This document shows positions 2,617 to 62,591 of a stretch of 64,000 bases of DNA, one piece after another. The stretch covers positions 19,861 through 83,860 of IMG/VR virus record IMGVR_UViG_3300046323_000673; one strand, written 5' to 3'. Below the pieces are notes generated by a model. It saw only the letters and a program-made list of their open reading frames with translations. It was not told where the DNA came from and made no database searches. Source of the stretch: a virus. Both the position numbers and the translations under genes were made by a program. The stretch's first letter is position 1; each line of letters starts with the position of its first letter.

Positions 2617-2646
2617 AAATCCAATTGGATCGATCCAATTGGATTT
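2617..2646. repeat. 30-bp palindrome copy 1 (exact)
   Basis: AAATCCAATTGGATCGATCCAATTGGATTT, intergenic; followed by CGTCGAG-TAACAT. Confidence 0.97.
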
Positions 2647-2670
2647 CGTCGAGTAACATAGAGGGTCGTC

Positions 2671-3231
2671 ATGTTAGCAAGCGTCGAACGAGTGATCATT
2701 TGGGATGGTACGGGACAAGAACGGGTTGGAACTTTGGTGTATCCGAGTCCCGCGTTGTCGAGTGAGGAGGACAACGGGCGCATCATCACGCTTCCAACCG
2801 ACGAACGATTGTTTGGCAAGAGCGCGCTTGGTGGGCTCTTCATTCGTCATTGGGGCGGCGGGGTGAAGTTCACGTCGATGCAGCCGCAACGACATTGCCC
2901 GATGGTCCTGCATGTTTCGTCGGACTTGTCGTTTCTGCATTGGGTGCTGCGCATTGAAAAGGCCGATTCGAAAGCGGATGTACGCGGCACACTCGCGATC
3001 GTCGGAACGAACGATCCGGTGATTCAATCGGTCGGGGTATTGTCCGCGATAGGGCGCACCGTTGACCTGTCGTCGCTCGGGGAAGCCGACAAGCAAGGTG
3101 GGTGGTTCATCAAGGGCAAATCGGTCCTACGCACAATGCAGGACGGGCTTTGCCCATTGATGGTGCAAGCGGTGAGTGACAACTTGCGCGTGAGGTGGAC
3201 GGCGCTCACCCAAAGTCGAAGCGAGGAATGA
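2671..3231 (+). CDS. hypothetical protein
   Basis: 186 aa ORF with GAGGG RBS, just downstream of palindrome 1. Confidence 0.7.
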   Translation: MLASVERVIIWDGTGQERVGTLVYPSPALSSEEDNGRIITLPTDERLFGKSALGGLFIRHWGGGVKFTSMQPQRHCPMVLHVSSDLSFLHWVLRIEKADSKADVRGTLAIVGTNDPVIQSVGVLSAIGRTVDLSSLGEADKQGGWFIKGKSVLRTMQDGLCPLMVQAVSDNLRVRWTALTQSRSEE

Positions 3232-3485
3232 ACGTGTTGAAGAAGCTTGGGGCGTTCATCTGGTTCGTGTACGATGTTGGGCGCCTCCTGTTCACTCGCG
3301 AATACAACGAACCTGATACGCCCCCGAACGACGACGATGAAGGCGAGCACGTACCAACAACACCCGTCGTGCACGTGTCGCCTGATGCATCGCGGATGAT
3401 CTCCCGTCCCAAGCCGGTCATCGCACCGGCAATCGACGAACCACTTGAAGGCAGCATCGAAGCTCGCCGACGCATGATCAACTGA
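3228..3485 (+). CDS. small hypothetical protein
   Basis: ATGA overlap with previous gene, GAGG RBS. Confidence 0.55.
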   Translation: MNVLKKLGAFIWFVYDVGRLLFTREYNEPDTPPNDDDEGEHVPTTPVVHVSPDASRMISRPKPVIAPAIDEPLEGSIEARRRMIN

Positions 3486-3805
3486 TGTTCACAGTGATCA
3501 ATGGCCATTCTGTCGATATTGTGGAGAGCGAGTTTCGTAGACGATTTCACGTGGAAGTCGCGCACGTCATCGATGAGATTCACGCAATGAATCTCATCGA
3601 GTCGGTTGGTGGACACGTTCCATTTCGCCGAAGACAATCCGTCGAAATGACGCTTAAACACTTGTTGTCGATCGGCTCGTACCCAGACGACAAGCTGCAA
3701 GCATCCCTGAAACATCCGACAACCGTTACATCGCAACCCACCATGAGGTTTATGGTTGGCGTCGTATCGCGTCTTTTTGGCGACGTTGGAGATGATTCAC
3801 GGTAG
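3485..3805 (+). CDS. hypothetical protein
   Basis: TGATG coupling with previous gene. Confidence 0.55.
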   Translation: MFTVINGHSVDIVESEFRRRFHVEVAHVIDEIHAMNLIESVGGHVPFRRRQSVEMTLKHLLSIGSYPDDKLQASLKHPTTVTSQPTMRFMVGVVSRLFGDVGDDSR

Positions 3806-3813
3806 AAGGAACC

Positions 3814-5916
3814 ATGGGTTTCTTCCGCAACGATGGGCAAACGTTCCCCGGCCCCGCATTCCCCATTCAATCCACCGTGCGCGGCACGAACGGCACGATA
3901 TACGCCGTGAGTTCGTTTGGCGTGGATGACACGACGTTTGGCCCGTCGTTCCGCCCGCAAAGTCTTGTCGAGAACGACCGACATAGGACGCTCGACTTCC
4001 GCCGGAAGTTCTACAATTGCACACAGCACGACCACAAGATCTACGATATGTCGGGGCGGATGAACCGGGGTGGGCAGATGGCCCTTATGCAACCCCTGCT
4101 TTCCTCGCAACCCCCGCCGTTTTACGTGCCCCTTGATCAACGTCGGCCGAACAACCCGTATCGACTCGCGCGATTGATCGTGCAGGCGTTCACGAACTTC
4201 GTATTCGGTGAACATCGATTCCCGAAGATCAAATGCACGGGCGATACCGACGCGGAAGACTTCGCAGACGCGCTTGTGCAGGCGAGCGACCTACCCACTG
4301 TGATGATTCGCGCACGCAACATGGGCGGGTCATGCGGAAGCGTTGGCCTATCGTGGCGGTTCTATCAGGGCAAACCATGCGTGCGTGTGCATTCCGCGGC
4401 GAACGTGTACGTGCACGAATGGGTTGATCGTGATGAAGGCGTCGTCGCGCACGTGAGCGAGATCTATCTCGTGTATCGGGATGTTTGGAACGACAAGGCA
4501 AAGAAGCAGGAACGAGCCCCGCATTGGTACCGTCGCGATTGGACACCCACCGCCGATATCGTGTTTGTCGAACAGCCATTGAACAAGGACGGGGGTGCTA
4601 ACGAGTGGGTTGTCGATGAAGATCAAACGGTCGTGCACGATGACGGGTTTGCCCATTTCGTCTGGATTCCAAATCAACCGAGTGACGACGACGAAAGCGA
4701 ATACGACGGCGAACCCGATTACGAGGGGTTATTCGAGCAAGCCAACACGATCGATATGCTCAACAGCGTGCTCGCGACGGGCACAGTGCGAAACCTTGAT
4801 CCCACGCTCGTATTGAAGCTATCGACCGAACAGCAAGAGATGCAGAAGCGCGGCGTGTCTAAAGGAAGCGACAATGCGTTGAACGTCGGCGAATCGGGTG
4901 ATGCGAAGTATTTGGAACTCGGGGGCACGGCTGCATCGACGGGCATTGCGCTCTTGAAGCAGCAACGGCAATTCGCGCTCGAGGTCGCACAGTGCGTGAT
5001 TCCCGACCCGAACGAGATTGCAGCAGCAGCAACGTCGGGGCGTGCGATCGAATTGCTCTATGCACCCATGGGCGCGAAATCATCCATATTCCAAGCGCAA
5101 TATGGCAAGGGCATCACGTCGCTTGTTACGCAGATGATCACGAGTGCTCGAAAGCGAATGCCGACAACGAACGAGGATGGATCACTTGAATACCCGCTCG
5201 AACTCGATGGCGAGACGGGGTTGATGGTCCCCGTCGAATACTTCCTCGACTTGCCCCCACGCGAGATCACCGAAGCGGTTGTCGACCCGATATCGGGATT
5301 GCCCACGGGTGAGAACAAGATCGTCGGGTATGAGCAGCGCAAGCCGGGCAAGGGGCGAGTGTTCGTGTGCGAATGGCCGAAACGATTCGGAACGACAGAC
5401 ACTGACGATCAATCAGCCGCAACGACAACCGCGACAAGCACGGGCGGGAAAGCATTCGTGTCGCAACGAAGCGCGGTGGAATCGTTTGCAAAGCGTATGG
5501 GCCGTGATCCACACGAAGAATGGAAGCGCGTACTTGAGGAAAAGAAGCAGGCAGACGAACGTGAACAAGGGATGTTCCCCGGCACGGGCGGGGCAGTGGC
5601 GTCGTCGTTGGGTGCTGATACGGGTCAAGCGTCAGTTGACGACGTGGAAGAGCAGGACGGGGCGATTGCGGGCGAGCAAGGGGGGGGCAATGACGTCGCG
5701 CCTGTGCCCACTGAGATCGAACCGTCGCTTGTGCTTAACGGTGCACAGATACAAGCGGCACTCGAAATCGTGCAGCAGGTCGTCACGCAACAAATCCCAC
5801 GTGATACAGCGATCGGCCTGCTCAAGATCGGGTTCAATATGACCAACGCACAATCAATCGAGATCCTTGGTTCGGCTGGTCGTGGGTTTGTTCCTGCATC
5901 GCAAGACGGCAACTGA
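3814..5916 (+). CDS. phage portal protein (SPP1 gp6-like)
   Basis: 700 aa, AAGGA RBS, lies before a gp7/Mu-F gene; portal-like segments (NLARLIV-like YRLARLIVQAFTNFVFGE, GDAKYLE). Confidence 0.8.
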   Translation: MGFFRNDGQTFPGPAFPIQSTVRGTNGTIYAVSSFGVDDTTFGPSFRPQSLVENDRHRTLDFRRKFYNCTQHDHKIYDMSGRMNRGGQMALMQPLLSSQPPPFYVPLDQRRPNNPYRLARLIVQAFTNFVFGEHRFPKIKCTGDTDAEDFADALVQASDLPTVMIRARNMGGSCGSVGLSWRFYQGKPCVRVHSAANVYVHEWVDRDEGVVAHVSEIYLVYRDVWNDKAKKQERAPHWYRRDWTPTADIVFVEQPLNKDGGANEWVVDEDQTVVHDDGFAHFVWIPNQPSDDDESEYDGEPDYEGLFEQANTIDMLNSVLATGTVRNLDPTLVLKLSTEQQEMQKRGVSKGSDNALNVGESGDAKYLELGGTAASTGIALLKQQRQFALEVAQCVIPDPNEIAAAATSGRAIELLYAPMGAKSSIFQAQYGKGITSLVTQMITSARKRMPTTNEDGSLEYPLELDGETGLMVPVEYFLDLPPREITEAVVDPISGLPTGENKIVGYEQRKPGKGRVFVCEWPKRFGTTDTDDQSAATTTATSTGGKAFVSQRSAVESFAKRMGRDPHEEWKRVLEEKKQADEREQGMFPGTGGAVASSLGADTGQASVDDVEEQDGAIAGEQGGGNDVAPVPTEIEPSLVLNGAQIQAALEIVQQVVTQQIPRDTAIGLLKIGFNMTNAQSIEILGSAGRGFVPASQDGN

Positions 5917-6914
5917 TGAAGCGCGCATCGCCCCTCGAAATCCTTCAACGTTCCCGACAACGCGCGCTCGACTTCGCGGGCAAAGCGGGCACGGCGCGGA
6001 TGCGTCACGTGTTGGAAAAGGCCCAACGCGATATGGAACGGCGGTTGAAGGAAACCGAGGGGCTGGGCGGGGCAGGCAGTGGAAGCTTCACCGCTGCCCA
6101 ATTGCGCACAACGTTGGCCCAAGTGCGTGACGTATTGCGTGCGACGGCATTGCCAGGGATGCAAAGCGATATCGTGGACGTTGGGAAGATGGCGGCGGAA
6201 AGCGCGGCGCAATCAACGATCGAATACATACGCGCGAGCGACAAGGCGTTCACGGGGCTTGGTCGTTCCCTCGCAATCGATAACGCGGCGCTTTACGATG
6301 TTGCCGTGCGAGGGTCGGAAGCGAGCATCTTGCGTCGCATTGGCTCGAACCCGAAAGACCCTCGTTCGTTGGGCGTGTTGCAGCGGTATGGGATCAACAC
6401 GGTTGGCGCGTTCGAGGGCGTGTTGCAACAACGATTGATTGCACAGAAGCCATGGGCAGACGTGCGCAAGGAACTGATTGAAGAGTCGCCGTTTCTGCAA
6501 GGCCAACCGATGCATTGGGCGGAACGCATTGTTCGAACCGAGGTCATGGGCGCCAACAACTTCGCGTCGAATTCGGCGATCACTGAATTGAATGAGCAGC
6601 TCGACGACATGCTGAAGATCAATTCAGCGACGTTCGACAACCGTACAAGTGCCGATAGCTACGCGGTGCACGGGCAGATACGTCGCACGAACGAGGCATT
6701 TGATTCGTGGTGGGGGAGCTTTATGCATCCACCGGATAGGCCGAACGATCGCAGTGTGGTCGTGCCGCACCGGATGTCGTGGCCATTGCCCGCTGGATTG
6801 AAGCCCAAGAGTGATGGGGAGATCGCCGCACGTTGGGCAATGGAAGGGCGGAAGGGTTCACCACCGGCACGGCCGCGAATCAGCACGGTGCCGATGGATC
6901 AATTGCGGAAGTGA
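5916..6914 (+). CDS. head morphogenesis protein (Mu gpF / SPP1 gp7 family)
   Basis: WAERIVRTE, DNRTS, HGQ and HPPDRPNDRS (family motif PPxHPNCRC). Confidence 0.85.
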   Translation: MKRASPLEILQRSRQRALDFAGKAGTARMRHVLEKAQRDMERRLKETEGLGGAGSGSFTAAQLRTTLAQVRDVLRATALPGMQSDIVDVGKMAAESAAQSTIEYIRASDKAFTGLGRSLAIDNAALYDVAVRGSEASILRRIGSNPKDPRSLGVLQRYGINTVGAFEGVLQQRLIAQKPWADVRKELIEESPFLQGQPMHWAERIVRTEVMGANNFASNSAITELNEQLDDMLKINSATFDNRTSADSYAVHGQIRRTNEAFDSWWGSFMHPPDRPNDRSVVVPHRMSWPLPAGLKPKSDGEIAARWAMEGRKGSPPARPRISTVPMDQLRK

Positions 6915-6985
6915 ACCGTCAAGTAACCCGTGCAATATATTCCAGCACTCGACGAACATCCCTTCCTCGCGATACCCTCACGTGT

Positions 6986-7240
6986 ATGTCGATGTTCAAG
7001 CTCCGAACCGCACCGGGCGATCCCGGTATCAGGCGGGGTGATGCAGGCCGGTTCGTTCCGGCTGCACCTCCCCAAGTCACGCGTGAAGCTGTGAACGAGG
7101 GTATCGACACGATGCAGCTCGTTCACGAACGCTACCAAGCCCCCGAGCATCCCACGCCGGGGAAGAAGCGGGGCGTGTCGGAAAACCCCTGGCCTCCCGC
7201 AACGCCCCCCGCGCAGTCCCCTTTCCGCGTTCGTTCGTGA
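6986..7240 (+). CDS. small Pro-rich hypothetical protein
   Basis: TACCCT hexamer 7 bp before ATG; fills gap in head module. Confidence 0.5.
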   Translation: MSMFKLRTAPGDPGIRRGDAGRFVPAAPPQVTREAVNEGIDTMQLVHERYQAPEHPTPGKKRGVSENPWPPATPPAQSPFRVRS

Positions 7241-7258
7241 TACGTTCAACAAGTAACC

Positions 7259-7288
7259 AAATCCAATTGGATCGATCCAATTGGATTT
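7259..7288. repeat. 30-bp palindrome copy 2 (exact)
   Basis: Intergenic; followed by CATCGAG-TAACGAAGGGAT. Confidence 0.97.
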
Positions 7289-7313
7289 CATCGAGTAACG
7301 AAGGGATTTGGTC

Positions 7314-7589
7314 ATGGCACAAGGCGACGGCAAGACACCGGGCACTGGTTCAAGTAGCCCGTTTGGCGACGGGCAGGGCGGCATCAGCGGCGGACGGGCA
7401 GCCCCGTTTGACCAGTTCGCGCAATCGAACCCGCAACGCCCTGTATCCCCTACGAGTTTTCCCAAGGGGCAAGTTCCCGCGGGTGGCGAGATCTTGAAAG
7501 CGGACCCCGTTGCGGGTTCGATTCGTGCCGCGCAGATCGGCACGACTGCAACGAACAACCGTCCCCCCTTCCGCACACGAGGCGCGTAA
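7314..7589 (+). CDS. small Gly/Pro-rich hypothetical protein
   Basis: ORF with AAGGGA RBS. Confidence 0.6.
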   Translation: MAQGDGKTPGTGSSSPFGDGQGGISGGRAAPFDQFAQSNPQRPVSPTSFPKGQVPAGGEILKADPVAGSIRAAQIGTTATNNRPPFRTRGA

Positions 7590-7592
7590 TCA

Positions 7593-8003
7593 ATGGGCGG
7601 CATCGTCGAACTCTCAGGCGGGTTATCCGCGGGTGCACCGGCGGGTTGCGGGTGTGGCGATGCCTCACTCGTATTCCCGTTTGAGTTTCCCGGCGGATGC
7701 AGCGGCAAACCATTCACGGTAAGCACGCAAGGCGGCCGGACGATCATCAGCCCGGTGACATACGTTTCGCTTCCGAATATTGGAACGGGCGGCGACGTCA
7801 CAAAAGCGGATCTCTTTGCCTTTCGAGGTGAAGGGACGGTCGAGCTCGAACTCACGTTCGACGACGGCATTGGAGGCACGACGGTTGTTGTGGTTCCAAT
7901 GCAGGGACTTTACTTCCAAACGTTTGGCGCTCCGAAGTACCTGGTAGGGGTACGGGTGCGCGGTAACAGCACGATCACGTATTTCGCATCAGGACCTCAA
8001 TAG
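7593..8003 (+). CDS. hypothetical (possible virion) protein
   Basis: 136 aa beta-rich ORF in head module. Confidence 0.6.
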   Translation: MGGIVELSGGLSAGAPAGCGCGDASLVFPFEFPGGCSGKPFTVSTQGGRTIISPVTYVSLPNIGTGGDVTKADLFAFRGEGTVELELTFDDGIGGTTVVVVPMQGLYFQTFGAPKYLVGVRVRGNSTITYFASGPQ

Positions 8004-8023
8004 GTCGGAGGACACGGACGAAC

Positions 8024-8704
8024 ATGGCGAACATCAAAGAGAAAGCAGCGCTTGCGGGCGCGACGAACAACACGTTACCCGAGCACTTGAAAACGATCGG
8101 GTTTGCCGCGGTGATGCGTGGGCAAATCAATCAAGTGGTTCGGAAGAAGGATCCCGCGGCGAGTGTGTATTCGCCGGTCGCAACGGTGGAAGCGGTTGTG
8201 CTCGCCGACGATGCGAAAGCTACGAGCATCCTGCGTGCATACGCGCGTGTCGGAACCGTGACGGGTGCGCTTACCGTGGTTGCACCGGGAACCACGCCGG
8301 CGACAACCGAGATTTCGATTCAGCCGAACGGTGACATCATGGTTCTCGCGGCTGATGCTATTACGAGTCTCGACGTCACGTTCGTCCCGGAACGAGGCGA
8401 CGTTGACGAACTCCCGAATTGGCCCGTCGCATCCGATGCGATTGCATTGCCCGCGCGCATCACCACGCCGGGTGCGATCCTCTTGCTTGAAGCTGAATCA
8501 CTTGAAGGAACGCTCACGGGCAAACTGCGTGTGCTCGCCCCGAGTGCATCCGCAGCGGCGACAGGCCAAGCACGCTTGAACCTCGCGAAAACGAGCGTGA
8601 AGTTTGCCCCCGCGGATGCAGTGACGAAAGCGCGCGTGAAGCTGCTTGTGTGCGCGGCGGTCGATCTTGACACGGTTCTCGAATCCGACGCGACTATTCA
8701 GTAA
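8024..8704 (+). CDS. putative head decoration/structural protein
   Basis: 226 aa Ala/Val/Thr-rich with internally repeated domain; GGAGG RBS; position in head module. Confidence 0.6.
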   Translation: MANIKEKAALAGATNNTLPEHLKTIGFAAVMRGQINQVVRKKDPAASVYSPVATVEAVVLADDAKATSILRAYARVGTVTGALTVVAPGTTPATTEISIQPNGDIMVLAADAITSLDVTFVPERGDVDELPNWPVASDAIALPARITTPGAILLLEAESLEGTLTGKLRVLAPSASAAATGQARLNLAKTSVKFAPADAVTKARVKLLVCAAVDLDTVLESDATIQ

Positions 8705-8726
8705 TAACAAACGGAGGAAGGTCGTC

Positions 8727-9695
8727 ATGGCAGAACAATCGCAAGAGCAGGGTAACGAAACGGGTGCTGCGGGTGGGAACGCTGCACCGGACAAACAAGG
8801 CGGGGGCGCGTTTGGTACCGCCACACGTGCGCCCGTCTTCCCGTCGCAAGCCGCAGCGGCAACGCAAGGCAACAACGCTGCACAGGGGCAGGACGGGGCA
8901 GCAGCGGGCGGTGTAGCGCCAACAGTTCGCAAGCCCGTAGGCACTGCGCAGATCCCCGACGAAGCGTTGAATGCTCGACTCGAACGCAATCGCCGACAAA
9001 CCGAAGACAAGTATCTGAAGATGCTTGGTGTAAAGAGCGAAGCAGAAGCGAAAGCCAAACTCGATTCGCTCAAGAGTGCCGAGCAAGAGGGCGAGAAACG
9101 TCGGCTTGCGGAACTCTCCGAAGTCGAGCGGTACAAGGCAGAACTCGCCACCGCGCAACAACGAATCGCGCAGCTCGAATCGCAACTCGCGGAACGTGAT
9201 CAAGAGCGTGAACACGAGCAACACGAGCAAGTGATCGTGCGTGTTGCGGGCGAGAGCATCAAGCCGAACGCGTTGCGCCTCTACAAACTCGATCTCGCGC
9301 AACACGTGAAGAAGCTCGCGGTGACAAACCCGCAACTTGCCGAGTCTTTCAACGAACGCGGTATCCGACGATTCACCGACAAGTGGTTGAAGGAAAACCC
9401 TGAGTTTGCGAAAGCGCCCGTCGATGCAGCACCGGCGGGTACTGGTAATGCATCGGCGAAACCCCCCGCGACGGGTGCACGTCCCGCGCCTGCACAACCG
9501 GGCCTTGTGCGCCGTCCCGTGTCGACAGGCGCGCCTGTTCGTAAAGTCGGGGCACCCCCCGTTAATGGGCAAGCAGGCGGCGCGAATGGCCTGTTCAACG
9601 GCAAGACGCCCAAGCCGGGCCGTGCCAATTCGATGAATAACCAAGAATTCAAAGAGTACGTAAAGCAAACGACCGGCGCCAATTATAGCGGCTAG
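8727..9695 (+). CDS. capsid scaffolding protein
   Basis: GGAGG RBS; charged coiled coil (AELSEVERYKAELA...) with low-complexity ends; directly before major capsid gene. Confidence 0.75.
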   Translation: MAEQSQEQGNETGAAGGNAAPDKQGGGAFGTATRAPVFPSQAAAATQGNNAAQGQDGAAAGGVAPTVRKPVGTAQIPDEALNARLERNRRQTEDKYLKMLGVKSEAEAKAKLDSLKSAEQEGEKRRLAELSEVERYKAELATAQQRIAQLESQLAERDQEREHEQHEQVIVRVAGESIKPNALRLYKLDLAQHVKKLAVTNPQLAESFNERGIRRFTDKWLKENPEFAKAPVDAAPAGTGNASAKPPATGARPAPAQPGLVRRPVSTGAPVRKVGAPPVNGQAGGANGLFNGKTPKPGRANSMNNQEFKEYVKQTTGANYSG

Positions 9696-9710
9696 GTCAC
9701 CCTCCCAACG

Positions 9711-9740
9711 AAATCCAATTGGATCGATCCAATTGGATTT
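9711..9740. repeat. 30-bp palindrome copy 3 (exact)
   Basis: Between scaffold and major capsid genes. Confidence 0.97.
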
Positions 9741-9764
9741 CGTGATCCATCCCATCACAATCCA

Positions 9765-9794
9765 TTGACGAACGGTGATCCTCGCGCGTAGGGT
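9765..9794 (+). promoter_or_regulatory. candidate sigma70-type promoter for capsid gene
   Basis: TTGACG-18bp-TAGGGT. Confidence 0.35.
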
Positions 9795-9915
9795 TGTATT
9801 CACACGCCCCCCCGTACACACGCGAGCGGCCAATCACGCGGCACACCGGCGGTCAATCAGGTGGTCTCCAGGCGACGCTAAGCACGACCCATAGCGGGGC
9901 AAGGAGACTGTTCAC

Positions 9916-11301
9916 ATGTCACTCGTTTTGGGTATCCCGCCCGCAATTCTCAACCTCGTTCAGCAAGGCTTGCTTGAACGAGCATTCCACGACGGCCTCT
10001 TCCCCTCGCTGCTCTATCGCGGCGAAGCGCAGTACGAGGAATGGCAAGGTCAAACCGGCACTGAGATCTTTATGACTCGGCCCGGGCTCTTGGCACCCAT
10101 CACGACCCCGCTCGTTCCAGGTGTGGATCCCGTTCCGCAGACCGTGAGTTTTGAGCAATGGGTTGCACGGCTTGATCGTTATTCGGGGACGATCGATACG
10201 CACATGCCGACGTCGGCGGTTGCGCAAGCTGATTTGTTCATGCGCAATGTTCAGCAGCTCGGTTTGCAGGCCGGTCAGAGCCTCAACCGTTTGCCCCGCA
10301 ACGCGCTTTACAAGTCGTACCTATCGGGCCAAACAGTGACGATCCTCGTCACTGCGGTACCTGATACGGCAATCCGTGTTGCGTCGTTGAATGGATTCAC
10401 TGACGTCGTGAGTCGTGGCGTGAACGTGCGCCCGTTGCCGGTTTCCCCGAGTGCACCGTTGCCCATTACGATCAACGGAACGACCGCGCGTAACGTGGTT
10501 GGTGCATTCCCCGATGACCCGAACGATCCGTACGGACCGGGCACGCTATTGCTTGATGCAGCCGTGGGTGCAGTGGTTGCAGTTCGTTCGTCAGTGCTTT
10601 CGCGATTCAAGCCACGCGTGATTCGTTGCGGCGGTGGTAGCTCGATTGACGCAATCGGAAGCACGGACGTGCTCACGTTGCAGGACGCAATCAATTCCAC
10701 GAATTGGCTGCGCAAAAACAACGTTCTTCCCCACGAAGATGGGTACTACCACGGGCATATCAACACGGACGCCAACTCGCAGGTCTTCCAAGATCCCGCG
10801 TTCCAACGATTGAACACGAGCTTGCCGAATGGCGAGTATTACCAAAAGGCGTTCTTCGGAACGATCGCCGGTATCGCGTTCTACTCGAACAACGAAAACC
10901 CGGATTACACCAACTCGGGGGCTCGTACGCTTACCGGGACGAACGCTGCGTATAGCGCTGACATCGGCGCTGAAACGACGAACGAATCGGGGATCAACAT
11001 TGGTCGCGTGGTCATCACCGGCCGTGGTTCGATCTACGAAAAGGGCCTCGACGAAAACGCATACGTCACCGAAGCGGGTGTTACCGGAAAGATCGCCGAT
11101 TTCCAGGTGGTGAATGGCGGTGTGGAAATCAGCACCGAACGTATTCGATTGATCCTGCGTGCCCCGCAGAATCGTTTGCAGGATCAAGTAGCTGCAACGT
11201 GGTCGATCACGACCTGCTTCCCGATTCCCTCGGATGCGGCGAGCGGCGGACTTGAGCGATTCAAGCGTGCGGTCGTCATCGAACACGCGCTCGATAGCTG
11301 A
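9916..11301 (+). CDS. major capsid protein
   Basis: 461 aa, strong AAGGAG RBS, follows scaffold; resembles N4-gp56-type capsids (LTLQDAI..LRKNNV, YHGHIN, FGTIAGIAF). Confidence 0.8.
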   Translation: MSLVLGIPPAILNLVQQGLLERAFHDGLFPSLLYRGEAQYEEWQGQTGTEIFMTRPGLLAPITTPLVPGVDPVPQTVSFEQWVARLDRYSGTIDTHMPTSAVAQADLFMRNVQQLGLQAGQSLNRLPRNALYKSYLSGQTVTILVTAVPDTAIRVASLNGFTDVVSRGVNVRPLPVSPSAPLPITINGTTARNVVGAFPDDPNDPYGPGTLLLDAAVGAVVAVRSSVLSRFKPRVIRCGGGSSIDAIGSTDVLTLQDAINSTNWLRKNNVLPHEDGYYHGHINTDANSQVFQDPAFQRLNTSLPNGEYYQKAFFGTIAGIAFYSNNENPDYTNSGARTLTGTNAAYSADIGAETTNESGINIGRVVITGRGSIYEKGLDENAYVTEAGVTGKIADFQVVNGGVEISTERIRLILRAPQNRLQDQVAATWSITTCFPIPSDAASGGLERFKRAVVIEHALDS

Positions 11302-11312
11302 TTGATTCAGTA

Positions 11313-11379
11313 GGCAAGAGCGGGACGGTTGACGATCGCCCTGCTCTTGCCGCACGATGCGACCTCCCTAGGAGGTCGT
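11313..11379 (+). promoter_or_regulatory. two tandem hairpins after capsid gene, second one occludes the RBS
   Basis: GGCAAGAGC(11313-21)/GCTCTTGCC(11343-51); CGACCTCC-CTA-GGAGGTCG (11360-78) contains GGAGG of the next gene. Confidence 0.6.
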
Positions 11380-11382
11380 TTT

Positions 11383-11973
11383 ATGGCTCGAAATCTTCCC
11401 GCAAACACTGAAGAACGAAACCTTACCCCGGTTGATGCGCAAGCGTTGAAGGAAGCGCAAGCGTTGAATGCTGCTGCTGATGCTTCGCGTGGTACGTCAA
11501 ACGTTGCTGCTGAAGCTGCACGTGCGCAGCAGCAACAAGGCGCGAGTGTGCAAGTGCTCGATGCAACGCCCATTCGAACGGTGGATATGTCCCCGCCGGG
11601 TAACAAGATTGACGCATTACCGGACATGGTCAGTCGGCATCTTGTCGATGCGTCAACGACTGCACCCGTCGTGCGCAGTGCACTTGATGTTCCCTTACCC
11701 AAAGTGGCGCGAACAGGAACGGCAATCGTGATGCAAGGCGTGGGTGCAATGCAAGGCAACGGAGCGACCGAAGCAGTAGAAGCAGCTCCCCCAGTCGAAC
11801 GAAAGTATCGTGTTATGGAAACACGAATGATCCTTGACACGACAAGTGCATCGCGAACAAAGCTGCAAGAGGGAAAGGAAATCAGTGACAAACACTACAC
11901 GATTCGCCGATTGCAGCAGCAGGGCGTGAAGCTCAAAGACATTACAGATCTTGATCCCAACGCGCCGGTTTGA
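11383..11973 (+). CDS. hypothetical protein (post-capsid)
   Basis: GGAGGT RBS, Ala-rich ORF. Confidence 0.7.
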   Translation: MARNLPANTEERNLTPVDAQALKEAQALNAAADASRGTSNVAAEAARAQQQQGASVQVLDATPIRTVDMSPPGNKIDALPDMVSRHLVDASTTAPVVRSALDVPLPKVARTGTAIVMQGVGAMQGNGATEAVEAAPPVERKYRVMETRMILDTTSASRTKLQEGKEISDKHYTIRRLQQQGVKLKDITDLDPNAPV

Positions 11974-11986
11974 AAGGGTTTGACCA

Positions 11987-12394
11987 ATGGGTGTCGATTA
12001 TCTGACCGCTGATGAAAAGGTCCGCATTCGGCACCACCTTGGTTACCTGAATGTGGATGAATCGAGCACGTTCGTGATCGGTTTGCCCGCGGGTGTCGAA
12101 ACGCAATTCATGATCGAGGGATCGTTTTCCCGACTGCTTGCCGCTGCATTGCCCCAGGTGCGCAAGCTCTTGCAATACTGCGAATGCACCGAGGAACAAC
12201 GATTCAGCTCGCAACCCAACGCGGTTGTGAAAGAAGTCGATGGGATCAAGATGGGCGCAGAGGACGAACAGTTGATGCTTTCCCGCAATTACGACTATTG
12301 GCGCGCGGCACTCGCCAACATGTTCGGGATCCCGCCCAACCAGTTTGATATGCGGTACGGCGGCGGTTCACTCAACATCCGCGTGCAGGGGTGA
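11987..12394 (+). CDS. putative head-tail adaptor
   Basis: 135 aa, LTADEKVRIRHHLGY N-terminus; synteny. Confidence 0.6.
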   Translation: MGVDYLTADEKVRIRHHLGYLNVDESSTFVIGLPAGVETQFMIEGSFSRLLAAALPQVRKLLQYCECTEEQRFSSQPNAVVKEVDGIKMGAEDEQLMLSRNYDYWRAALANMFGIPPNQFDMRYGGGSLNIRVQG

Positions 12395-12406
12395 GCATCG
12401 AAGGTG

Positions 12407-12436
12407 AAATCCAATTGGATCGATCCAATTGGATTT
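12407..12436. repeat. 30-bp palindrome copy 4 (exact; extends to 38 bp, 12403-12440)
   Basis: Between convergent genes; GGTG...CACC flanks extend the symmetry. Confidence 0.97.
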
Positions 12437-12447
12437 CACCCCGTTCA

Positions 12448-13002
12448 TCACCGCGAGCGTGGACGACGTCGCAACATGCGAGGGACGCGAATCGCTGAAC
12501 GAAGAATCGACGCGAGTTCTTCACGGTCGAGTTTGCGTGCGTGTGCGAGTTCTTCTTCCAATCGAAAACAACGCTGAATCAACTCGTTGTATTCGGCGTT
12601 CAATGCATCGAACGAACCGAATTGTTTCAATTGTGATTCGAGCACGCGAACACGAGCATTCAGGTTTGCGCATTCGGTCGTCTTGGCATCGAGATCTGTT
12701 TGCTTGAACATCGTCTGCTCAACTGCCCATTGAAGGCACGCCGCTTCGTTCTCGGCAGTCTTGCGATCGAATGTGACTTCCGCAAGCTTGGCGTGGATCT
12801 GTTTCGCGCATGCCCATGTACACACGTCAAATGATGACTTATTGAATCCATTTCTTACGAATTCGGATCGATATCCTGCACTGAAATGACGCCATTCGTC
12901 TTCGTCTGGGTTTGGTGGGTATGCATTGCGTCGCTTGTTTGGATTCGCTTCCTGTTTCCCGCACGCATCACAGATCATTACTGTGGTTGTTTCGCTGCTC
13001 AT
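12448..13002 (-). CDS. antisense hypothetical protein, CxxC zinc-binding plus coiled coil
   Basis: CDACG...CTWAC; GAGGA RBS; CATGAT upstream. Confidence 0.7.
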   Translation of the reverse strand: MSSETTTVMICDACGKQEANPNKRRNAYPPNPDEDEWRHFSAGYRSEFVRNGFNKSSFDVCTWACAKQIHAKLAEVTFDRKTAENEAACLQWAVEQTMFKQTDLDAKTTECANLNARVRVLESQLKQFGSFDALNAEYNELIQRCFRLEEELAHARKLDREELASILRSAIRVPRMLRRRPRSR

Positions 13003-13050
13003 TGATTGATCCTCGCTCTCGTTCCCATCATGCGATGATTGCGCCTGCCC

Positions 13051-13611
13051 ATGAAACCTCGAGCCCTACCCGCTGGTACCGCGGCACGAACAGTGCTCGC
13101 ACGCATCGCCCCTGCCATCGACAACGCGCGACAAGTCGCAACCGAGATCGGCGCGCGTCCGTATCAAGTCTTCCTCGTGTGGGGCGCGTGGGGTGGCAAG
13201 GAACGGGGCGAAGGAACGTTCGGGGAACTCGCACGGTTGCAGCTATTGCCAAACCCCAAGATCGACACTGTGCAATTCACGAACACGCCCTACAGCGCGG
13301 GGCAGTTGCCCGTGGGTGCATTGCGCGTGTCGGGTATTTCGTCGACGTATACGCAACCTGTTTTGCAGGGTAATCGACTTCCGAATGGGCATGAGTTCGA
13401 CAAGCAAAACAGGCGTAACGACTTCTTCTACGAGATCACGCTCGATGATCGAACCCCGAGTGAAGACCCCGAACGTGCGCGTATGCGATTGCTCTCTGGA
13501 CCCACGCTCATGCCCACGCGCGTATCGTGGGAGATGCAACTTGAACGCTCGTCTGATGATCGTTCCAATCGGGAAGCACGCATTGATCGCGCGAATGGAA
13601 AGGGCTGCTGA
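13051..13611 (+). CDS. putative head-closure/neck protein
   Basis: Size and synteny between adaptor and gp10-like gene. Confidence 0.55.
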   Translation: MKPRALPAGTAARTVLARIAPAIDNARQVATEIGARPYQVFLVWGAWGGKERGEGTFGELARLQLLPNPKIDTVQFTNTPYSAGQLPVGALRVSGISSTYTQPVLQGNRLPNGHEFDKQNRRNDFFYEITLDDRTPSEDPERARMRLLSGPTLMPTRVSWEMQLERSSDDRSNREARIDRANGKGC

Positions 13612-14117
13612 TGGCTGCTGAAATCACGTTGCAGGAAGCGGCGCAACGAACGGAAGAACTCAAAGAGAAGTGGCACAAGGCGGCTGTGCTTGGCTTGCAA
13701 TCAGCAGCGGCAAGGGGCGTGCAGGACATCGTCACGCGCATCATCCCATCACGCACGCCGCAACCCGTGGACCGGGGAGTCTATCGCTCGGGATGGCGGT
13801 TCTATACAGCTCCCGATGGTGCGGTGATTGATAACGCCGAACCGCACGCCATCTTGATCGAAGACGGCGTGCGTGCGGGTAACGTTAAGATCGGGAAGAA
13901 GATGATCGACGCGCTTGCTGAGTGGGTACAGCGCAAGGGCATTGTTAGTGGGGATGACGCACGTTCGGTTGCATGGGCAATCGCGAAGTCGATGCAGCGC
14001 CGGGGGATATTCAACAAGGGCAAGGGAATGGGGATACTTGCCGAACTGGTCGACAAGTATCTGCCCGGCTATGTCGAAGAAGAAGTTGCGCGGGAAGTCG
14101 AACGGGCGGGGTTCTAG
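13611..14117 (+). CDS. HK97 gp10-like neck/tail component
   Basis: PVDRGVYRSGW, NAEPHAILIEDG, WVQRKG motifs. Confidence 0.7.
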   Translation: MAAEITLQEAAQRTEELKEKWHKAAVLGLQSAAARGVQDIVTRIIPSRTPQPVDRGVYRSGWRFYTAPDGAVIDNAEPHAILIEDGVRAGNVKIGKKMIDALAEWVQRKGIVSGDDARSVAWAIAKSMQRRGIFNKGKGMGILAELVDKYLPGYVEEEVAREVERAGF

Positions 14118-14470: not shown

Positions 14471-14500
14471 GGAATTGAACTCCTTTCGAGTCGGGATAGG

Positions 14501-14704: not shown

Positions 14705-14720
14705 GCCGTGATCATGCGTG

Positions 14721-17738: not shown

Positions 17739-17749
17739 GAGGTGACGTC

Positions 17750-51771: not shown

Positions 51772-54315
51772 ATGCAAACACGCTCGTCACGGCGCGCTAA
51801 TGAACGGCGCGCGTACACCAATGCATTTTGGGCAGGGCAACACATTGTGCTTCTGTCCCGTGACGAGCGCGGCGAATTGGTTCGTGAGTTAGTCCCCGCC
51901 GAACACACGTCCTTTATTCGCAAAACAGAATTTGACAAGCATCCGACTTTGCGTGCGGTAATTGAGCAAAGTCGGTTCGTGCTTGGTTGGCGTCCTGAAG
52001 GCGAGTTCATCCGCATATCGTGGACAACCCGCGACAAATCAATTCAAGCAGCCGAGAAGGGCGGGTTTTTCGCAAGTCACGGCATTGACGTGTTTGAAGC
52101 TGACGTTGATCCCGTGCGCCGGTTTGTCACGGATAACCCGATCGATATTCAAAAGCCGAAACGTGCGTATCTTGATTTGGAGACGGACGATCGGGTGAGT
52201 TTTTCCGAGTTGCACAAGATGCGGATCTTGTGTTGGTCGGTCATTTCGCACGATGTTGACCCCGTAACAGGCAAGCAGGTGATGCAAACGGGCGTGCTCG
52301 CGGCTGAAACGATTGAAGCTGAACGCGAGCTATTGAAGTCGCTCTTTGCTGCGCTTGCCGATTACGATCAAGTTGTTGCGTGGAACGGCGATCGTTTTGA
52401 TTTTAAAGTCATTGGACATCGATTGCAAGCGGCGGGACTTGCGGTTGAACTTCGCCGATGGCTTTGGACCGATCAAATGCTTGTGTTTGAACGGTTCGAC
52501 AAGGCGAGTGCAGAGAGCGGCGAAGAAAAGCAGAGTATGTCGCTTGCCGCGGTAGCTGCATCGAAACTAGGCGTGGACGAAAAGAAGCTTGTCGAGCTTG
52601 GTAAAGTGGGCGGGGAACGCACCTATGCAATGTGGGCAGTGGGCGGCGAAAAGCGTAAATGCCTTATCGAGTATTGTGTCGATGACACGTTGAAACAATA
52701 CAAGATTGAATGCAAAACTGGATACCTCGACCTGCTTTATGCAGTCGCGGAAGTAACGCACACGTTTCCCGATACACGCGGTGCGGACCCCATTCAATTC
52801 GTCGAGGGGTTTTTGCTGCGTACAGGCGTCGAACGGGATTATCGATTCCCCACGTGGTACCCGCCCGAAGTAAACGAGAAGGGCGAGCGCGAGAAGTTCC
52901 GCGGCGCGTGGGTACAAGAGCCAACGAAGACGGGGATCTTGCATGACGTGCACGTTGCCGACTTCGCGGGGATGTATCCCACGATCATTATCACGTGGAA
53001 TATGTCGCTCGACACGATGCGCCCAGAAATTCAATTGTCGGAAACATGGCTTACGCGCCCGACATATCGAATGCATTTACCATTGGAACGTTATCCAATC
53101 CCCGAAGGGCATTGCGCAGCGCCGGGCACCGACATTGCATTCGTGAATGAGCCGCAAGGGATTCTTCCCGCGGCGGTGAGTGAAATCATTCGGTTGCGTG
53201 CGCATTGGAACGACGAAAAGAAGAAGCATCCACCAGGCTCGCCTGCATGGCACGACGCGAATCGTCGGAGTGCCGCGTTCAAGATTGTCGCGAATAGCTT
53301 CTACGGTGTGATGGGTTCGGTATGGTCGCGCTTCTTTGATAAGCGACTTGCCGAAAGCGTGACGCAAGCAGGTGTTTGGCTCATTCAGGAGACAAGCAAA
53401 GCAGGTGAAGCGCGGGGCATCAAAACGGTTTACGGCGACACTGATAGCATCTTTTCAATGGGCGTGACAGAAGCAGAGTTTCGATTGTTTGTCGAGTATG
53501 CGAACAATGAGCTGTATCCACGTTTGTTGAAAGGGCAGGGTTGCTCGCGTAACCGAATCAAGCTGGAGTTTGAAAAATCGTTTCGTCTGCTCTTGTTAAT
53601 GGGTAAAAAGCGGTACGCGGGCGCTTATTCGCAATACAAGGGCAAGCGCGCGGATGCGACAAGCAAGCCCGAAATCAAGGGGCTGGAGTTTAAGCGGGGC
53701 GACGTTACGCGGCTTGCTCGCCATTTGCAAAGTGACGTGATTGATTCGATCATGGCGGGTGAGTTGACCCCTGCGAAGTACGAAGAAATCGTGATGCGTT
53801 ACCGGATGCTCTTGCTTGAAGGGCAGGTTGAGCTTGCCGATATTGTGCAATCGAAGGGCTTGTCGAAGTCTTTGCGCGAGTATCAAGCGAAGTCGAAGAA
53901 AGACGGGACGGATAGCGCCCTGCCTGCACACGTGGTTGTCGCGAAAGAACTGAAGAAGCGAGGGCAAGACGTTGGGCAGGGGATTCGCGTCGAGTATTTC
54001 GTGAAGGATTCCAAGACGGACCCTGTTTCGTATGCGCCGGCGGAAGACTGGACAGGCGAGTTCGATCGGTATCACGCGTGGGAGAAGCTTGTTTATCCCG
54101 CGACAGAACGAGTGCTCGCGTGCGCATTCAAGTCGCAAGATTGGACTCGTTTTGCACGGGTTCGGCCGGCGAAGGAAGTCGCGGGGGGCGTGAACCTGTT
54201 CGGCGCGGGAACGCTTGCGGTACCCGTGGGAGGCGTGGCAAAGCGGGTCGTGCGCAAACCATCGTCGAAAGCGAGCACGGGTTCGAATAGGTCGGGGCAA
54301 GGTGACTTGTTCTGA
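51772..54315 (+). CDS. polB: family B DNA polymerase with 3'-5' exonuclease
   Basis: DLET, WNGDRFD, YCVDD; DFAGMYPTII, KIVANSFYG, YGDTDS, KKRY, KGLE. Confidence 0.95.
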   Translation: MQTRSSRRANERRAYTNAFWAGQHIVLLSRDERGELVRELVPAEHTSFIRKTEFDKHPTLRAVIEQSRFVLGWRPEGEFIRISWTTRDKSIQAAEKGGFFASHGIDVFEADVDPVRRFVTDNPIDIQKPKRAYLDLETDDRVSFSELHKMRILCWSVISHDVDPVTGKQVMQTGVLAAETIEAERELLKSLFAALADYDQVVAWNGDRFDFKVIGHRLQAAGLAVELRRWLWTDQMLVFERFDKASAESGEEKQSMSLAAVAASKLGVDEKKLVELGKVGGERTYAMWAVGGEKRKCLIEYCVDDTLKQYKIECKTGYLDLLYAVAEVTHTFPDTRGADPIQFVEGFLLRTGVERDYRFPTWYPPEVNEKGEREKFRGAWVQEPTKTGILHDVHVADFAGMYPTIIITWNMSLDTMRPEIQLSETWLTRPTYRMHLPLERYPIPEGHCAAPGTDIAFVNEPQGILPAAVSEIIRLRAHWNDEKKKHPPGSPAWHDANRRSAAFKIVANSFYGVMGSVWSRFFDKRLAESVTQAGVWLIQETSKAGEARGIKTVYGDTDSIFSMGVTEAEFRLFVEYANNELYPRLLKGQGCSRNRIKLEFEKSFRLLLLMGKKRYAGAYSQYKGKRADATSKPEIKGLEFKRGDVTRLARHLQSDVIDSIMAGELTPAKYEEIVMRYRMLLLEGQVELADIVQSKGLSKSLREYQAKSKKDGTDSALPAHVVVAKELKKRGQDVGQGIRVEYFVKDSKTDPVSYAPAEDWTGEFDRYHAWEKLVYPATERVLACAFKSQDWTRFARVRPAKEVAGGVNLFGAGTLAVPVGGVAKRVVRKPSSKASTGSNRSGQGDLF

Positions 54316-54332: not shown

Positions 54333-54362
54333 AAATCCAATTGGATCGATCCAATTGGATTT
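54333..54362. repeat. 30-bp palindrome copy 17 (exact)
   Basis: Intergenic; followed by CGTGATG-CATGAT. Confidence 0.97.
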
Positions 54363-61743: not shown

Positions 61744-61922
61744 GTGAAATGTTAAATCGAAAGTTTCCAAAATTGGACGAACCCGCTCGCGAAATCGTTT
61801 ATCGGGCATTGATGGCAGTTACGACAAATGACGATGAACATTGGAAGTCGGGTCGTGATTATGTTCACGATGGTGCTGATGAATGGTTGAAGGAGATCAA
61901 ACAAGATAACAGCAAGCCATGA
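61740..61922 (+). CDS. small hypothetical protein
   Basis: Overlap-coupled at both ends, GGAGG RBS. Confidence 0.55.
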   Translation: MSEMLNRKFPKLDEPAREIVYRALMAVTTNDDEHWKSGRDYVHDGADEWLKEIKQDNSKP

Positions 61923-62539
61923 GAACACGACATAGCCCAACGTCAACCGTTCTCGCGCTTGACCCCGGTCTTGCACACGTGGGGTATATCCTTGCTCGTA
62001 TTTGGCGCGGGCAAGGATTCCAGTGTTCCCCATGGGATATCGAGGTTGTCGAGGCGGGGTTATGGATCGCGCCACTCCCCGATATCGACGAACGAGTTCT
62101 CGACGCAATCGACGACACGACGAATCGGGCGATGTTCCAATTGGGCAATGTGCTCGCGAAGTACACGCAGGAAGGCGCCTCCGTCATCGTCGCGGAAAAG
62201 ATCTCACACCCTCGTGACGCATCGACGGCGATCCAAGTCACCGCGTTTTGGGCGATGCTCACCTACGCATTGAAGCAGCAGGCGATTCCGTTCGTGGCAC
62301 TTCGGCCGCAAGATATTCGCACGACGTTGGGTCTTCCCAAGACCAAGGCGACGATGACTCGGAATGATAAGAAGAAGCTCGTGACGGACGAAATCGAACG
62401 CAGGTATGGGCAGCCCAAGCTGAAGACGCTCTTGAGGCATCTGACGCGCAAGGAAGACCGTTCGCACCCACTTGATGCGCTTGCTAGCTTCACCGCGGCG
62501 ATGATCAAACAGTTCGGTACGGACTGCACGTTTCGGTGA
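61919..62539 (+). CDS. ruvC: RuvC-like Holliday junction resolvase
   Basis: VLALDPGLAHVG, IVAE, P..IR, H..DALA. Confidence 0.8.
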   Translation: MRTRHSPTSTVLALDPGLAHVGYILARIWRGQGFQCSPWDIEVVEAGLWIAPLPDIDERVLDAIDDTTNRAMFQLGNVLAKYTQEGASVIVAEKISHPRDASTAIQVTAFWAMLTYALKQQAIPFVALRPQDIRTTLGLPKTKATMTRNDKKKLVTDEIERRYGQPKLKTLLRHLTRKEDRSHPLDALASFTAAMIKQFGTDCTFR

Positions 62540-62561
62540 CGATCATCTATGTTGCTCGATG

Positions 62562-62591
62562 AAATCCAATTGGATCGATCCAATTGGATTT
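62562..62591. repeat. 30-bp palindrome copy 18 (exact; extends to 38 bp)
   Basis: GATG...CATC flanks; intergenic. Confidence 0.97.

Follow-up and report, generated by a model that had tools for sequence, protein, structure and literature searches.

The IMG/VR virus record IMGVR_UViG_3300046323_000673 is a linear sequence of 83,860 bp with a CheckV completeness of 91%. Its bases 19861-83860 form the stretch of 64,000 nucleotides that was analyzed here and is referred to as the window. A family of 30-bp palindromes is spread along this stretch, and an initial annotation made from the sequence alone had read them as protein-binding sites of a genome-wide phage regulon. PHROG and Pfam profiles of the record are those of a tailed phage, with portal, head morphogenesis and major head genes, a replication set of helicases, a DnaB-like helicase, a primase and a family B DNA polymerase, and recombination genes encoding a UvsX-like recombinase and SbcCD-like nucleases. 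Promoters of a phage-encoded RNA polymerase were set aside as an idea, no such polymerase having been recognized among the proteins screened. The phage was detected in at least eight freshwater metagenome runs. It has no close relative among cultured phages, and megablast of window positions 1-20000 against a phage collection gave no match.

The palindrome array

The 30-mer AAATCCAATT-GGATCGATCC-AATTGGATTT was searched for with at most three mismatches, which returned 18 matches in the window, while none of 100 dinucleotide shuffles gave any. Every start position of the initial annotation was recovered, and so were its counts of fourteen exact and four varying copies (three changes in copy 23230 and one each in copies 24745, 26789 and 44727; Table 1). 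Extending the search to the rest of the contig added five copies, all upstream of the window, giving a total of 23 for the record, and in 19 of these the 30 bp are identical and are their own reverse complement. The unit reads as first described: it is self-complementary, has a direct period of 14 bp, contains two GATC and two CAATTG sites and is AT-rich, with a G+C content of 10/30 (33%) against 52-59% in the window. The 12-bp half-site, with at most one mismatch, was matched 36 times (18 x 2) and never as a solitary site (0.22 expected). This family is the only one among repeated palindromes of at least 12 bp in the record.

With a conservative gene set, 21 of the 23 copies lie in gaps between genes, and these gaps amount to 17,455 of the 83,860 bases (21% of the record). 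The exceptions are copies 44727 and 62562, which fall within the first codons of the longest open reading frame (ORF), yet upstream of alternative starts. The earlier count of 17 intergenic copies out of 18 is thus to be replaced by 16 clearly intergenic and two ambiguous ones, of which copy 44727 may be intergenic because the PHROG match of its DnaB-like gene begins at residue 73. No copy occurs between 31623 and 38487, the stretch holding an insertion sequence (IS)-like rve gene, in agreement with the statement that none lies inside the IS. The contexts of the copies are mixed, including positions 2-62 nt past the stops of plus-strand genes, positions between divergent genes (a Dam methylase gene and the plus-strand gene after it; the early region and a pyrophosphohydrolase-like gene; several pairs of a tail gene and a small minus-strand ORF) and positions between convergent gene ends (copies 12407 and 31594).

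Table 1. Copies of the 30-bp palindrome in the window, with their flanking features (window coordinates; + and -, strand; SD, Shine-Dalgarno sequence; codon scores are percentiles of an antisense null).
Copy	Form	Left side	Right side	Other observations
2617-2646	exact	38 nt past stop of + ORF 2135-2578	24 nt ahead of ATG of ORF 2671-3231	flank CGTCGAGTAACATAG plus SD; syntenic with G003 copy, downstream gene 61% identical
7259-7288	exact		25 nt to ATG of ORF 7314-7589	syntenic with G003 copy, gene 72% identical
9711-9740	exact, 3-bp symmetric extension	15 nt past stop of ORF 8727-9695	TTGACG at 25 nt, ahead of major head gene 9916-11301	syntenic G003 copy also followed by TTGACG
12407-12436	exact, 4-bp symmetric extension	between convergent ends; 12 nt past stop 12394	11 nt to end of - ORF 12448-13002; no gene start near	syntenic in G003; RNA hairpin -25.9 kcal/mol
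14721-14750	exact	between divergent starts; - ORF 14501-14704, codon score >99th	TACCTT + 7 nt + ATG of 239-aa ORF	
18222-18251	exact, 3-bp symmetric extension	22 nt past stop of ORF 17750-18199	TTGACG 31 nt downstream	
22102-22131	exact	ATG of - ORF at 5 nt, coding score ambiguous (85th)	+ gene 22206-22904 at 74 nt	
23230-23259	degenerate, 3 changes including 2 in core	CATGAT + 6 nt + ATG of 102-aa - ORF	TGATACCCT + 6 nt + GTG of 400-aa ORF	
24745-24774	1 change, C20 to T	- ORF 24478-24735, codon score 100th	TAACAT + 6 nt + ATG of 571-aa ORF	bridged by independent contigs (runs X3, X6); syntenic with copy in distant relative G001
26789-26818	1 change, position 10 being C as in every relative		ATG of 343-aa ORF at 20 nt	bridged by independent contigs (runs X3, X4)
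28706-28735	exact	between divergent starts; - ORF 28418-28672 with SD, 99.4th	TTGACC at 22 nt	
31594-31623	exact, 3-bp extension (TTTT tail)	11 nt past stop of ORF 30476-31582		terminator-like pattern passed on - strand
38487-38516	exact, 3-bp extension	between divergent units; start of - gene 37394-38449, matching nucleotide pyrophosphohydrolase PHROGs	TTGACA at 39 nt, then 17 nt, TATATA	
39514-39543	exact		TTGACT at 48 nt, behind A-rich stretch	terminator-like pattern passed on + strand
44727-44756	1 change, T30 to C	inside longest ORF of DnaB-like gene 44617-46254	59 nt before in-frame ATG	
49591-49620	exact	16 nt past stop of ORF 48981-49574	25 nt before ATG of ORF 49646-50335	flank CATCGAGTAACGAAGGGA
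54333-54362	exact	17 nt past stop of family B DNA polymerase gene 51772-54315	CATGAT at offset 8, then SD and ATG 54397	
62562-62591	exact, 4-bp symmetric extension	22 nt past stop of ORF 61919-62539	within first codons of ORF 62549-62977, or upstream of later starts	

The possibility that the array arose in assembly was examined with contigs from other samples. Logan contigs of four other runs, belonging to four studies, bridge the variant copies 24745 and 26789, and it is these two copies across which the bridging covers the order of segments. At exact copies the k=31 Logan contigs break or tangle, and their loose ends lead into the flanks of other copies; since a 30-bp repeat must break such contigs, this is no argument against the array. 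The stronger evidence is that relatives assembled from other samples hold homologous palindromes, so the array is no assembly artefact. In run X3, one contig runs from 33441 directly to 37541 and omits 4,099 bp, in which the IS-like rve/DDE gene (33829-34959) and neighboring ORFs lie; part of the population seems to be without this segment. For a tRNA-like stretch at 31626-31729 on the minus strand, adjoining copy 31594, ARAGORN called no tRNA and Rfam no family.

Related phages share a core and differ in the arms

Relatives were collected in two ways. Loci L002-L012 came from a scan of metagenome contigs with an alignment of the ParB-family protein described below, and viral contigs scanned with the shared 14-mer supplied further records. 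In locus L002, whose ParB is 93% identical, a single copy reads AAATCCAATC-GGATCGATCC-GATTGGATTT. The form CTTTC-GGATCGATCC-GAAAG, a 20-mer, was found in L005/L007 and in G003/G004/L131 (ParB about 60% and structural proteins 60-86% identical) at 3 to 5 copies per fragment, namely three in L005/L007 and five, four and three in G003, G004 and L131, respectively. Locus L006 (ParB 57%) has one copy of CTTATC-GGATCGATCC-GATAAG. The more distant G001 and G002, with structural proteins 27-67% identical and a G+C content of 60% and 67%, carry eight and three copies of the 22-mer GACGTC-GGATCGATCC-GACGTC. Homologous palindromes therefore extend the array to a phage clade. The conserved unit is the central 14-bp core TYGGATCGATCCRA, with the clade-wide form T-Y-GGATCGATCC-R-A over the 14 bp. 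The arms are uniform inside each genome and different between lineages, and in the viral contigs scanned no arm type occurs outside its own lineage.

The comparison bears on the dimer-of-dimers arrangement that the initial annotation had proposed on the basis of two nested 12-bp palindromes. In L002, symmetric changes at positions 10 and 21 keep the 30-bp dyad and destroy both 12-bp palindromes, so the proposed layout is broken in the closest relative. The T/A pair at positions 10/21 of this record is probably the derived state, because all relatives have C/G there and copy 26789 keeps the C on one arm. The relatives with a ParB of 57-60% identity have palindromes of 20-22 bp with other, non-palindromic arms. 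Each arm of G001 and G002 is a palindromic hexamer at a different spacing, and the CTTTC and CTTATC arm types contain none. On the sequences compared, the nested 12-bp layout is a peculiarity of this lineage.

Several positions of the array are also shared. Window copies 2617, 7259, 9711 and 12407, together with a copy 2.5 kb upstream of the window, are syntenic with copies in G003/G004. These four or five gene junctions precede genes that are 61-86% identical, and the spacing is similar although every arm has changed. In the distant G001, some positions coincide with those of this record (e.g. 24745) and others are shifted by one gene or absent, and G004 has one copy at a place where this record has none. 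The partly shared and partly shifted or absent positions indicate sites that are long-lived yet turning over. Between a 542-aa gene and copy 2617 lies a segment of about 2.8 kb with three or four ORFs (genome 19689-22476, including window 1-2616), which has no counterpart in G003, where the 542-aa gene and the copy are 33 bp apart.

Neither the exact palindrome nor a version with free central bases was found in viral contigs outside its own record, and no relatives were returned from these contigs by searches with the portal protein or with the ParB alignment. In genome contigs the ParB alignment gave only distant N-terminal matches (30-34%) and no clue to the host, and the loci of distant ParBs (L009-L016) contained no repeated palindrome of 14 bp or more.

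Neighboring genes and flanking sequences

Upstream of the window, bases 4819-6846 of the record encode a ParB-family protein of 675 aa. It contains the Pfam domains ParB_N (7e-17) and HTH_ParB (3e-7) and scores 107.3 bits against the NCBIfam model parB_part (cut-off 58.45). Its N-terminal 170 residues match PDB structures of Spo0J, ParB and Noc with E-values of 4e-21 as a single sequence and 6e-27 as a profile, and the structure alignment spans about 145 residues including the helix-turn-helix (HTH; Spo0J 6sdk). The ParB profile matches KorB (8qa8) weakly, with E 0.002 where Spo0J and Noc reach 1e-23 to 1e-27. Eleven full-length homologues with identities of 56-89% were recovered, all of them metagenomic. 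Among the homologues, P0002 (69% identical) lies on a contig of 84,182 bp, P0001 on one of 37 kb and P0015 on one of 38.5 kb. The motifs G-x-x-R-x-x-A (G60, R63, A66) and ENRDR..PLEEA are invariant in 12 of 12 sequences. Among about 70 proteins screened, which are part of the proteome, this ParB is the only sequence-specific DNA binder recognized. A motif search for a ParA-type Walker A protein among the 93 predicted proteins of the record, which is 91% complete, was negative.

The C-terminal part of the protein adds about 500 residues with conserved cysteine clusters. An invariant cluster at residues 220-255 has the form C-x2-C-P-K-R-T-G ... C-x-D-x2-C, and a second at residues 570-610 is a C-rich block near residue 573; their pattern suggests metal-binding modules without a family match. 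An Atlas structure search with the C-terminus gave only weak leads, with a TM score of 0.43 to viral ParBs carrying FtsK_gamma.

The parB gene closes a tightly packed operon whose beginning directly follows another copy of the palindrome. In four of four lineages for which the region was available, a copy lies 12-48 bp past the parB stop. A Dam-family methylase (Pfam 2e-45, NCBIfam 2e-66) is encoded on the minus strand at bases 7649-8491, and its gene start adjoins a copy. In L005 a Dam that is 56% identical likewise lies beside a copy, and the order parB, copy, dam (minus strand), copy is kept there. GATC occurs 638 times in the record, against about 318 expected from base composition, and TCGA 823 times against about 318, so that both are two- to three-fold over-represented.

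The bases next to the palindromes were then compared. Read outward, flank positions 1-4 have the consensus C-R-T-S, and a -10-like hexamer, from a set defined after the data had been seen, begins at offset 7-9 on 20 of 46 flanks. A strict promoter test was used as well. To pass it, a flank had to show, no further than 45 nt from a copy, TANNNT (a -10 form of actinobacterial promoters), a spacing of 5-8 nt and the start codon of an ORF of 60 aa or longer. The test was passed by 3 of 46 flanks in this record (random rate 1.3%, P 0.02), by 5 of 16 in G001 (random rate 1.5%, P 2e-6), mostly as TGATACCCT + 6 nt + GTG at homologous gene starts, and by 2 of 6 in G002 (P 0.001). When the hexamer was relaxed, 12 of 46 flanks in this record were positive against a random rate of 9.6% (P 0.001). 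Ahead of the Dam gene, the arrangement hexamer + 6 nt + ATG is kept between this record and L005. At many sites, though not universally, the palindrome would thus appear to take the -35 place of promoters that have an extended -10 and a short leader or none. TTGAC-type promoters occur 22-48 nt downstream of 6 of the 23 copies. A generic promoter/terminator scan showed no enrichment over shuffles, and a strict scan for TTGACN-16/18-TANNNT gave three sites against 4.4 in shuffles. A sigma-70 promoter with the palindrome as its -35 element was rejected, the spacing being wrong (TTGGAT lies 8 or 22 nt from the hexamer).

Two near-duplicate regions of an early promoter type were noted at window 38554-38623 and 39590-39659, and the same type was seen at bases 6900-6960 of the record (locus L001) and at L002:2030-2090. 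They consist of an A-rich stretch, TTGACW, 17 nt including GCATCATGCC, and TATATA, lie 38-48 nt past a palindrome copy and each drive a different small ORF. Another motif, CATG[AC]N + 6-7 nt + ATG (CATG-N7/8-CATG), has 30 occurrences over the two strands, where base composition predicts about 6.5; examples lie at window 14702-14717, 24721-24736 and 26766-26780 and at genome 9-24, 17429-17444 and 21728-21743, and several are 4-9 nt from palindrome copies. Part of the hexamer and start-codon geometry on minus-strand flanks may be this motif, because it reads alike on both strands.

Small minus-strand ORFs (window 12448-28672) are scattered among the virion genes, and most of them start beside a copy. 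In a codon-usage test with Dam as positive control, five of the ten tested scored above the 99th percentile of the antisense null. Nine of the ten matched no PHROG family; the remaining one, 12448-13002, gave a weak match (E 9e-4) to a family of unknown function. G001 is without counterparts of these ORFs.

Candidate functions of the palindromes

We consider the best reading, with a probability of roughly 0.4, to be that the palindromes are double-stranded DNA docking or operator sites of the ParB/KorB-like kind bordering transcription units, with the phage's own ParB as the most likely binder. The sites, their conservation and positions, and the genes around them are observed; that ParB binds there, in which direction regulation would act and whether methylation plays a part are our inferences from them, as follows. 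ParB would read the central 14-16 bp (TYGGATCGATCCRA), which have the size of a ParB-type site; going by its family, such a protein needs a dyad-symmetric site about as long. The sites would mark the borders of units: they lie past stops, separate divergent genes or immediately precede -10-like hexamers, often with a start codon 5-8 nt further on and with the palindrome in the place of a -35 element. The bound protein, together with clamps that would load and slide as in other members of the family, may block or time the transcription of many units together. The Dam-family methylase whose gene neighbors parB would act on the two central GATC sites, and their methylation state may gate binding. 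Of the original proposal, the protein-binding site of a genome-wide regulon is thus retained as the best reading and has gained a candidate binder in ParB, while its dimer-of-dimers layout finds no support.

A number of observations weigh against this reading. An HTH dimer of ParB does not account for 30 bp that are identical in 19 of 23 copies, and Pfam searches with pieces of the C-terminal 500 residues returned nothing significant for a second DNA-binding domain. This record and L002 have the same recognition helix though their palindromes differ at +/-6, and the helix varies among homologues whose sites have the same core, so that no co-variation of protein and site is seen. Little weight attaches to the copy beside parB, as copies fill 21 of 50 sizeable gaps, and the four lineages showing it are not independent because they are related. 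No ParB was seen in G001-G004, but these are fragments of the structural region, 11-50% complete. The strict promoter test was passed by 0 of 10 flanks in G003 and 0 of 6 in L005, and the G003 copies lie 20-29 nt upstream of SD-led start codons. TTGAC within 60 nt of copies was observed six times against 3.1 expected (P 0.1, not significant), and copies 12407 and 31594, between convergent gene ends, have no start near. Finally, a conserved center with co-varying arms is the pattern to be expected of a hairpin and not of an operator with two half-sites.

The last point leads to the first alternative, that the element acts as a nucleic acid, either as a stable RNA stem with a UCGA loop, formed by a transcript of either strand, or as a single-stranded DNA hairpin or cruciform, with a protein reading the apex and the stem merely pairing. 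It could provide processing sites, stabilization of mRNA ends or weak termination between operons, or serve replication or recombination. RNA folds of six of six copies from five lineages have energies of -12.6 to -25.9 kcal/mol (z -3.2 to -6.5). The apex and the top of the stem are invariant and the arms differ by lineage yet remain complementary, but pairing alone does not require the arms to be identical among the copies of one genome, as they are. Beyond the shared unit, site-specific pairing of the flanks over at least 3 bp was found in 8 of 23 copies (permutation mean 2.7, P 0.0014), and pairing of 4 bp in 3 of 11 copies of the GACGTC type in G001/G002 (sum of extensions P 0.015); for the CTTTC type the test was not significant, and symmetric extensions can arise without selection. 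Such a case was seen in L131, which is 99.8% identical to G003/G004. Five flank bases were replaced there by seven that mirror the opposite flank, giving a 44-bp perfect palindrome (L131:2045-2088, compared with the same site in L089 and L082). Replacement of this kind is the signature of templated, quasi-palindrome-type copying, and arm growth in this way between near-identical genomes shows that the hairpin or foldback form is of consequence, for mutation at the least. Growth of a palindrome by templated copying between genomes so similar is a small result in its own right.

The placement of the copies speaks both ways on the hairpin. The position of the G003 copies ahead of their SD-led starts is a usual one for 5' stem-loops, the copies between convergent genes suit a role at transcript ends, and two of the eight copies in window 20001-40000 pass a terminator-like pattern. 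Copies between divergent starts, on the other hand, would be transcribed only if promoters overlap across them. The six stem substitutions in imperfect copies give one G-U pair and five A-C mismatches in the plus-sense transcript, a small sample, and the 8-9-bp stems of the relatives are short for RNase III, which has a lower limit of stem length. Termination of the intrinsic type is not conserved, because relatives are without a U tract after the stem; an intrinsic bidirectional terminator was rejected on this ground, on the stem's G+C content of 33% and on the pass rate of two in eight. At the gathering score, Rfam 15 gave no match in the whole window. On balance we regard the hairpin as an unlikely explanation of the array, though the strongest of the alternatives.

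A second alternative keeps the operator and changes the binder, which would be a different, unrecognized dimeric DNA-binding protein of phage or host, ParB having another target or task. In its favor, most proteins of the record are without a family (Pfam found none for 10 of 10 early or small proteins and for 8 of 10 in a second set), the recognition helix of ParB does not co-vary with the site, and the 30 conserved bp exceed one HTH dimer footprint. Phage ParB-fold proteins are described as diverse and mostly uncharacterized (PMC12704722, PMC13229309), with tasks that include the activation of DNA-modifying enzymes (PMC13229309) and with diverse domain fusions (PMC12704722). Against this stands the screen in which ParB was the only recognized binder. 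The phages with the same core span 55-67% G+C and probably infect different hosts, and conservation of the core across them argues against a host factor. We rate another binder as less probable still than a hairpin.

A recombination or self-propagating element is the third alternative, in which the palindromes would be hot spots of exchange like PeSL (promoter/stem-loop) elements of T4-type phages, or would spread and become uniform by copying like repetitive extragenic palindromes (REP), with little regulatory function. Arms that evolve in concert inside each genome fit such a process, and so does the templated arm growth in L131. Flank families are common to several copies, e.g. CRTCGAGTAACRTAG on about 12 of 46 flanks (counted by eye). 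The tail-region copies adjoin small minus-strand ORFs and genes without G001 counterparts, the segment absent from G003 ends at copy 2617, and the phage encodes the UvsX-like recombinase and SbcCD-like nucleases. However, the 4,099-bp skip and a gap difference before the portal gene are not at copies, an incomplete screen turned up neither a Y1 nor any other dedicated transposase beside the IS-like rve gene, and exchange among 23 orientation-free copies would remove or flip genes that the phage needs, so that some benefit would have to offset this cost. The invariance of the core across deep lineages and the syntenic positions point to purifying selection on a function, which also counts against this explanation, and we hold it to be the least probable of the three. 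Avoidance of restriction can be dismissed, since GATC and, outside the copies, CAATTG (43 against about 16 expected) are both over-represented.

The candidate roles in docking, in hairpin formation and in recombination or self-copying are not mutually exclusive. A fuller picture would have an orphan ParB CTP clamp at 20-odd palindromes bordering every unit, a GATC state set by Dam, an early/late switch that tracks replication, and copies homogenized by templated copying and exchange, making up a KorB-style regulon in a freshwater phage clade. As a whole we regard this picture as doubtful, distinctly more so than ParB docking by itself, yet slightly ahead of the hairpin.

For ParB docking, the known systems offer two main points of comparison: by analogy, KorB and its operator OB are the closest in mechanism and the dyad repeat of Cluster O mycobacteriophages is the closest in phenomenon. 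KorB of the IncP plasmid RK2 is described as a CTPase clamp of the ParB family and a global silencer, which shuts down promoters from operators that are many near-identical palindromes at or near promoters across one replicon (PMC11790492). Dispersal and near-identity are matched here; proximity to promoters is significant in G001/G002, weaker in this record and, by the strict test, nil in G003 and L005. Partition is not the obvious task of the protein here, as with KorB, because no ParA was found. The two systems differ in that the replicon here is a phage, the similarity to KorB is marginal, and the palindromes are 20-30 bp long with lineage-specific arms around a 14-bp core. The Cluster O repeat, 5'-TGTTCGGNNNCCGAACA, is reported as a 17-bp dyad of 7-bp inverted motifs with a 3-bp spacer, present in more than 30 copies per genome, with binding by a dimeric protein predicted and the function given as unknown; in Corndog, 14 of 34 sites are said to be intergenic and most are not at promoters (PMC4351075). 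The resemblance is one of kind only, as sequence and layout differ and the palindromes here are longer, lack a spacer, vary in their arms by lineage and lie in gaps in 21 of 23 cases. No mycobacteriophages were among the tblastn protein-level matches of this phage.

Other systems are more remote. Cluster A stoperators are described as dozens of copies of a short site in intergenic DNA, where the bound protein is proposed to silence transcription (PMC4351075), and they share with the palindromes the dispersal of one short site between genes across a phage genome. Stoperators are asymmetric and oriented with transcription, unlike the perfect palindromes here, and no immunity repressor or integrase was recognized in this phage. 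With ParB-parS and with Noc and its binding sites (NBS), the N-terminal domain and HTH align and the core agrees in size and dyad symmetry, whereas here 23 sites lie on 84 kb, 21 of them in gaps between genes, no ParA was found, about 500 C-terminal residues are added, and the core sequence is unrelated to any site checked. PeSL elements of T4-type phages, as far as described in PMC2839356 and PMC4122927, likewise place a repeated stem-loop motif beside small variable genes with signs of modular exchange, but they are composite promoter-terminator motifs and not one perfect palindrome with an invariant core, and here the junctions of core structural genes are conserved. No Y1 (IS200/IS605-like) transposase of the kind linked with REP (RAYT, REP-associated tyrosine transposase) turned up among the roughly 70 proteins screened. 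Our literature search returned no described phage ParB-operator regulon, and a search with the 10-bp core had cloning primers and similar among the matches listed.

Dyad repeats spread over a whole genome are on record for a few phage groups, the Cluster O mycobacteriophages among them, and lack an explanation, and phage ParB-fold proteins are common while their DNA targets are largely unknown. The array offers a clean, testable pair of one orphan ParB with an HTH and one family of sites. It also offers a set of naturally occurring variants, in which three or four types of arm surround a shared core and one copy is damaged in its core; this set could show what a phage ParB reads and does to transcription. 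If true, the link to ParB would extend gene silencing by CTP clamps from plasmids to viruses and would aid the annotation of many uncultured phages.

As to the wider affinities of the phage, the best cultured-virus matches of the family B DNA polymerase are haloarchaeal tailed viruses, at 24-27% identity. The idea of an archaeal virus was nevertheless dropped in view of the DnaB/DnaG-type replication genes, ParB, the SD sequences and the TTGACA-type promoters. The portal gene matches Ralstonia and Komagataeibacter phages at 29-30% identity.

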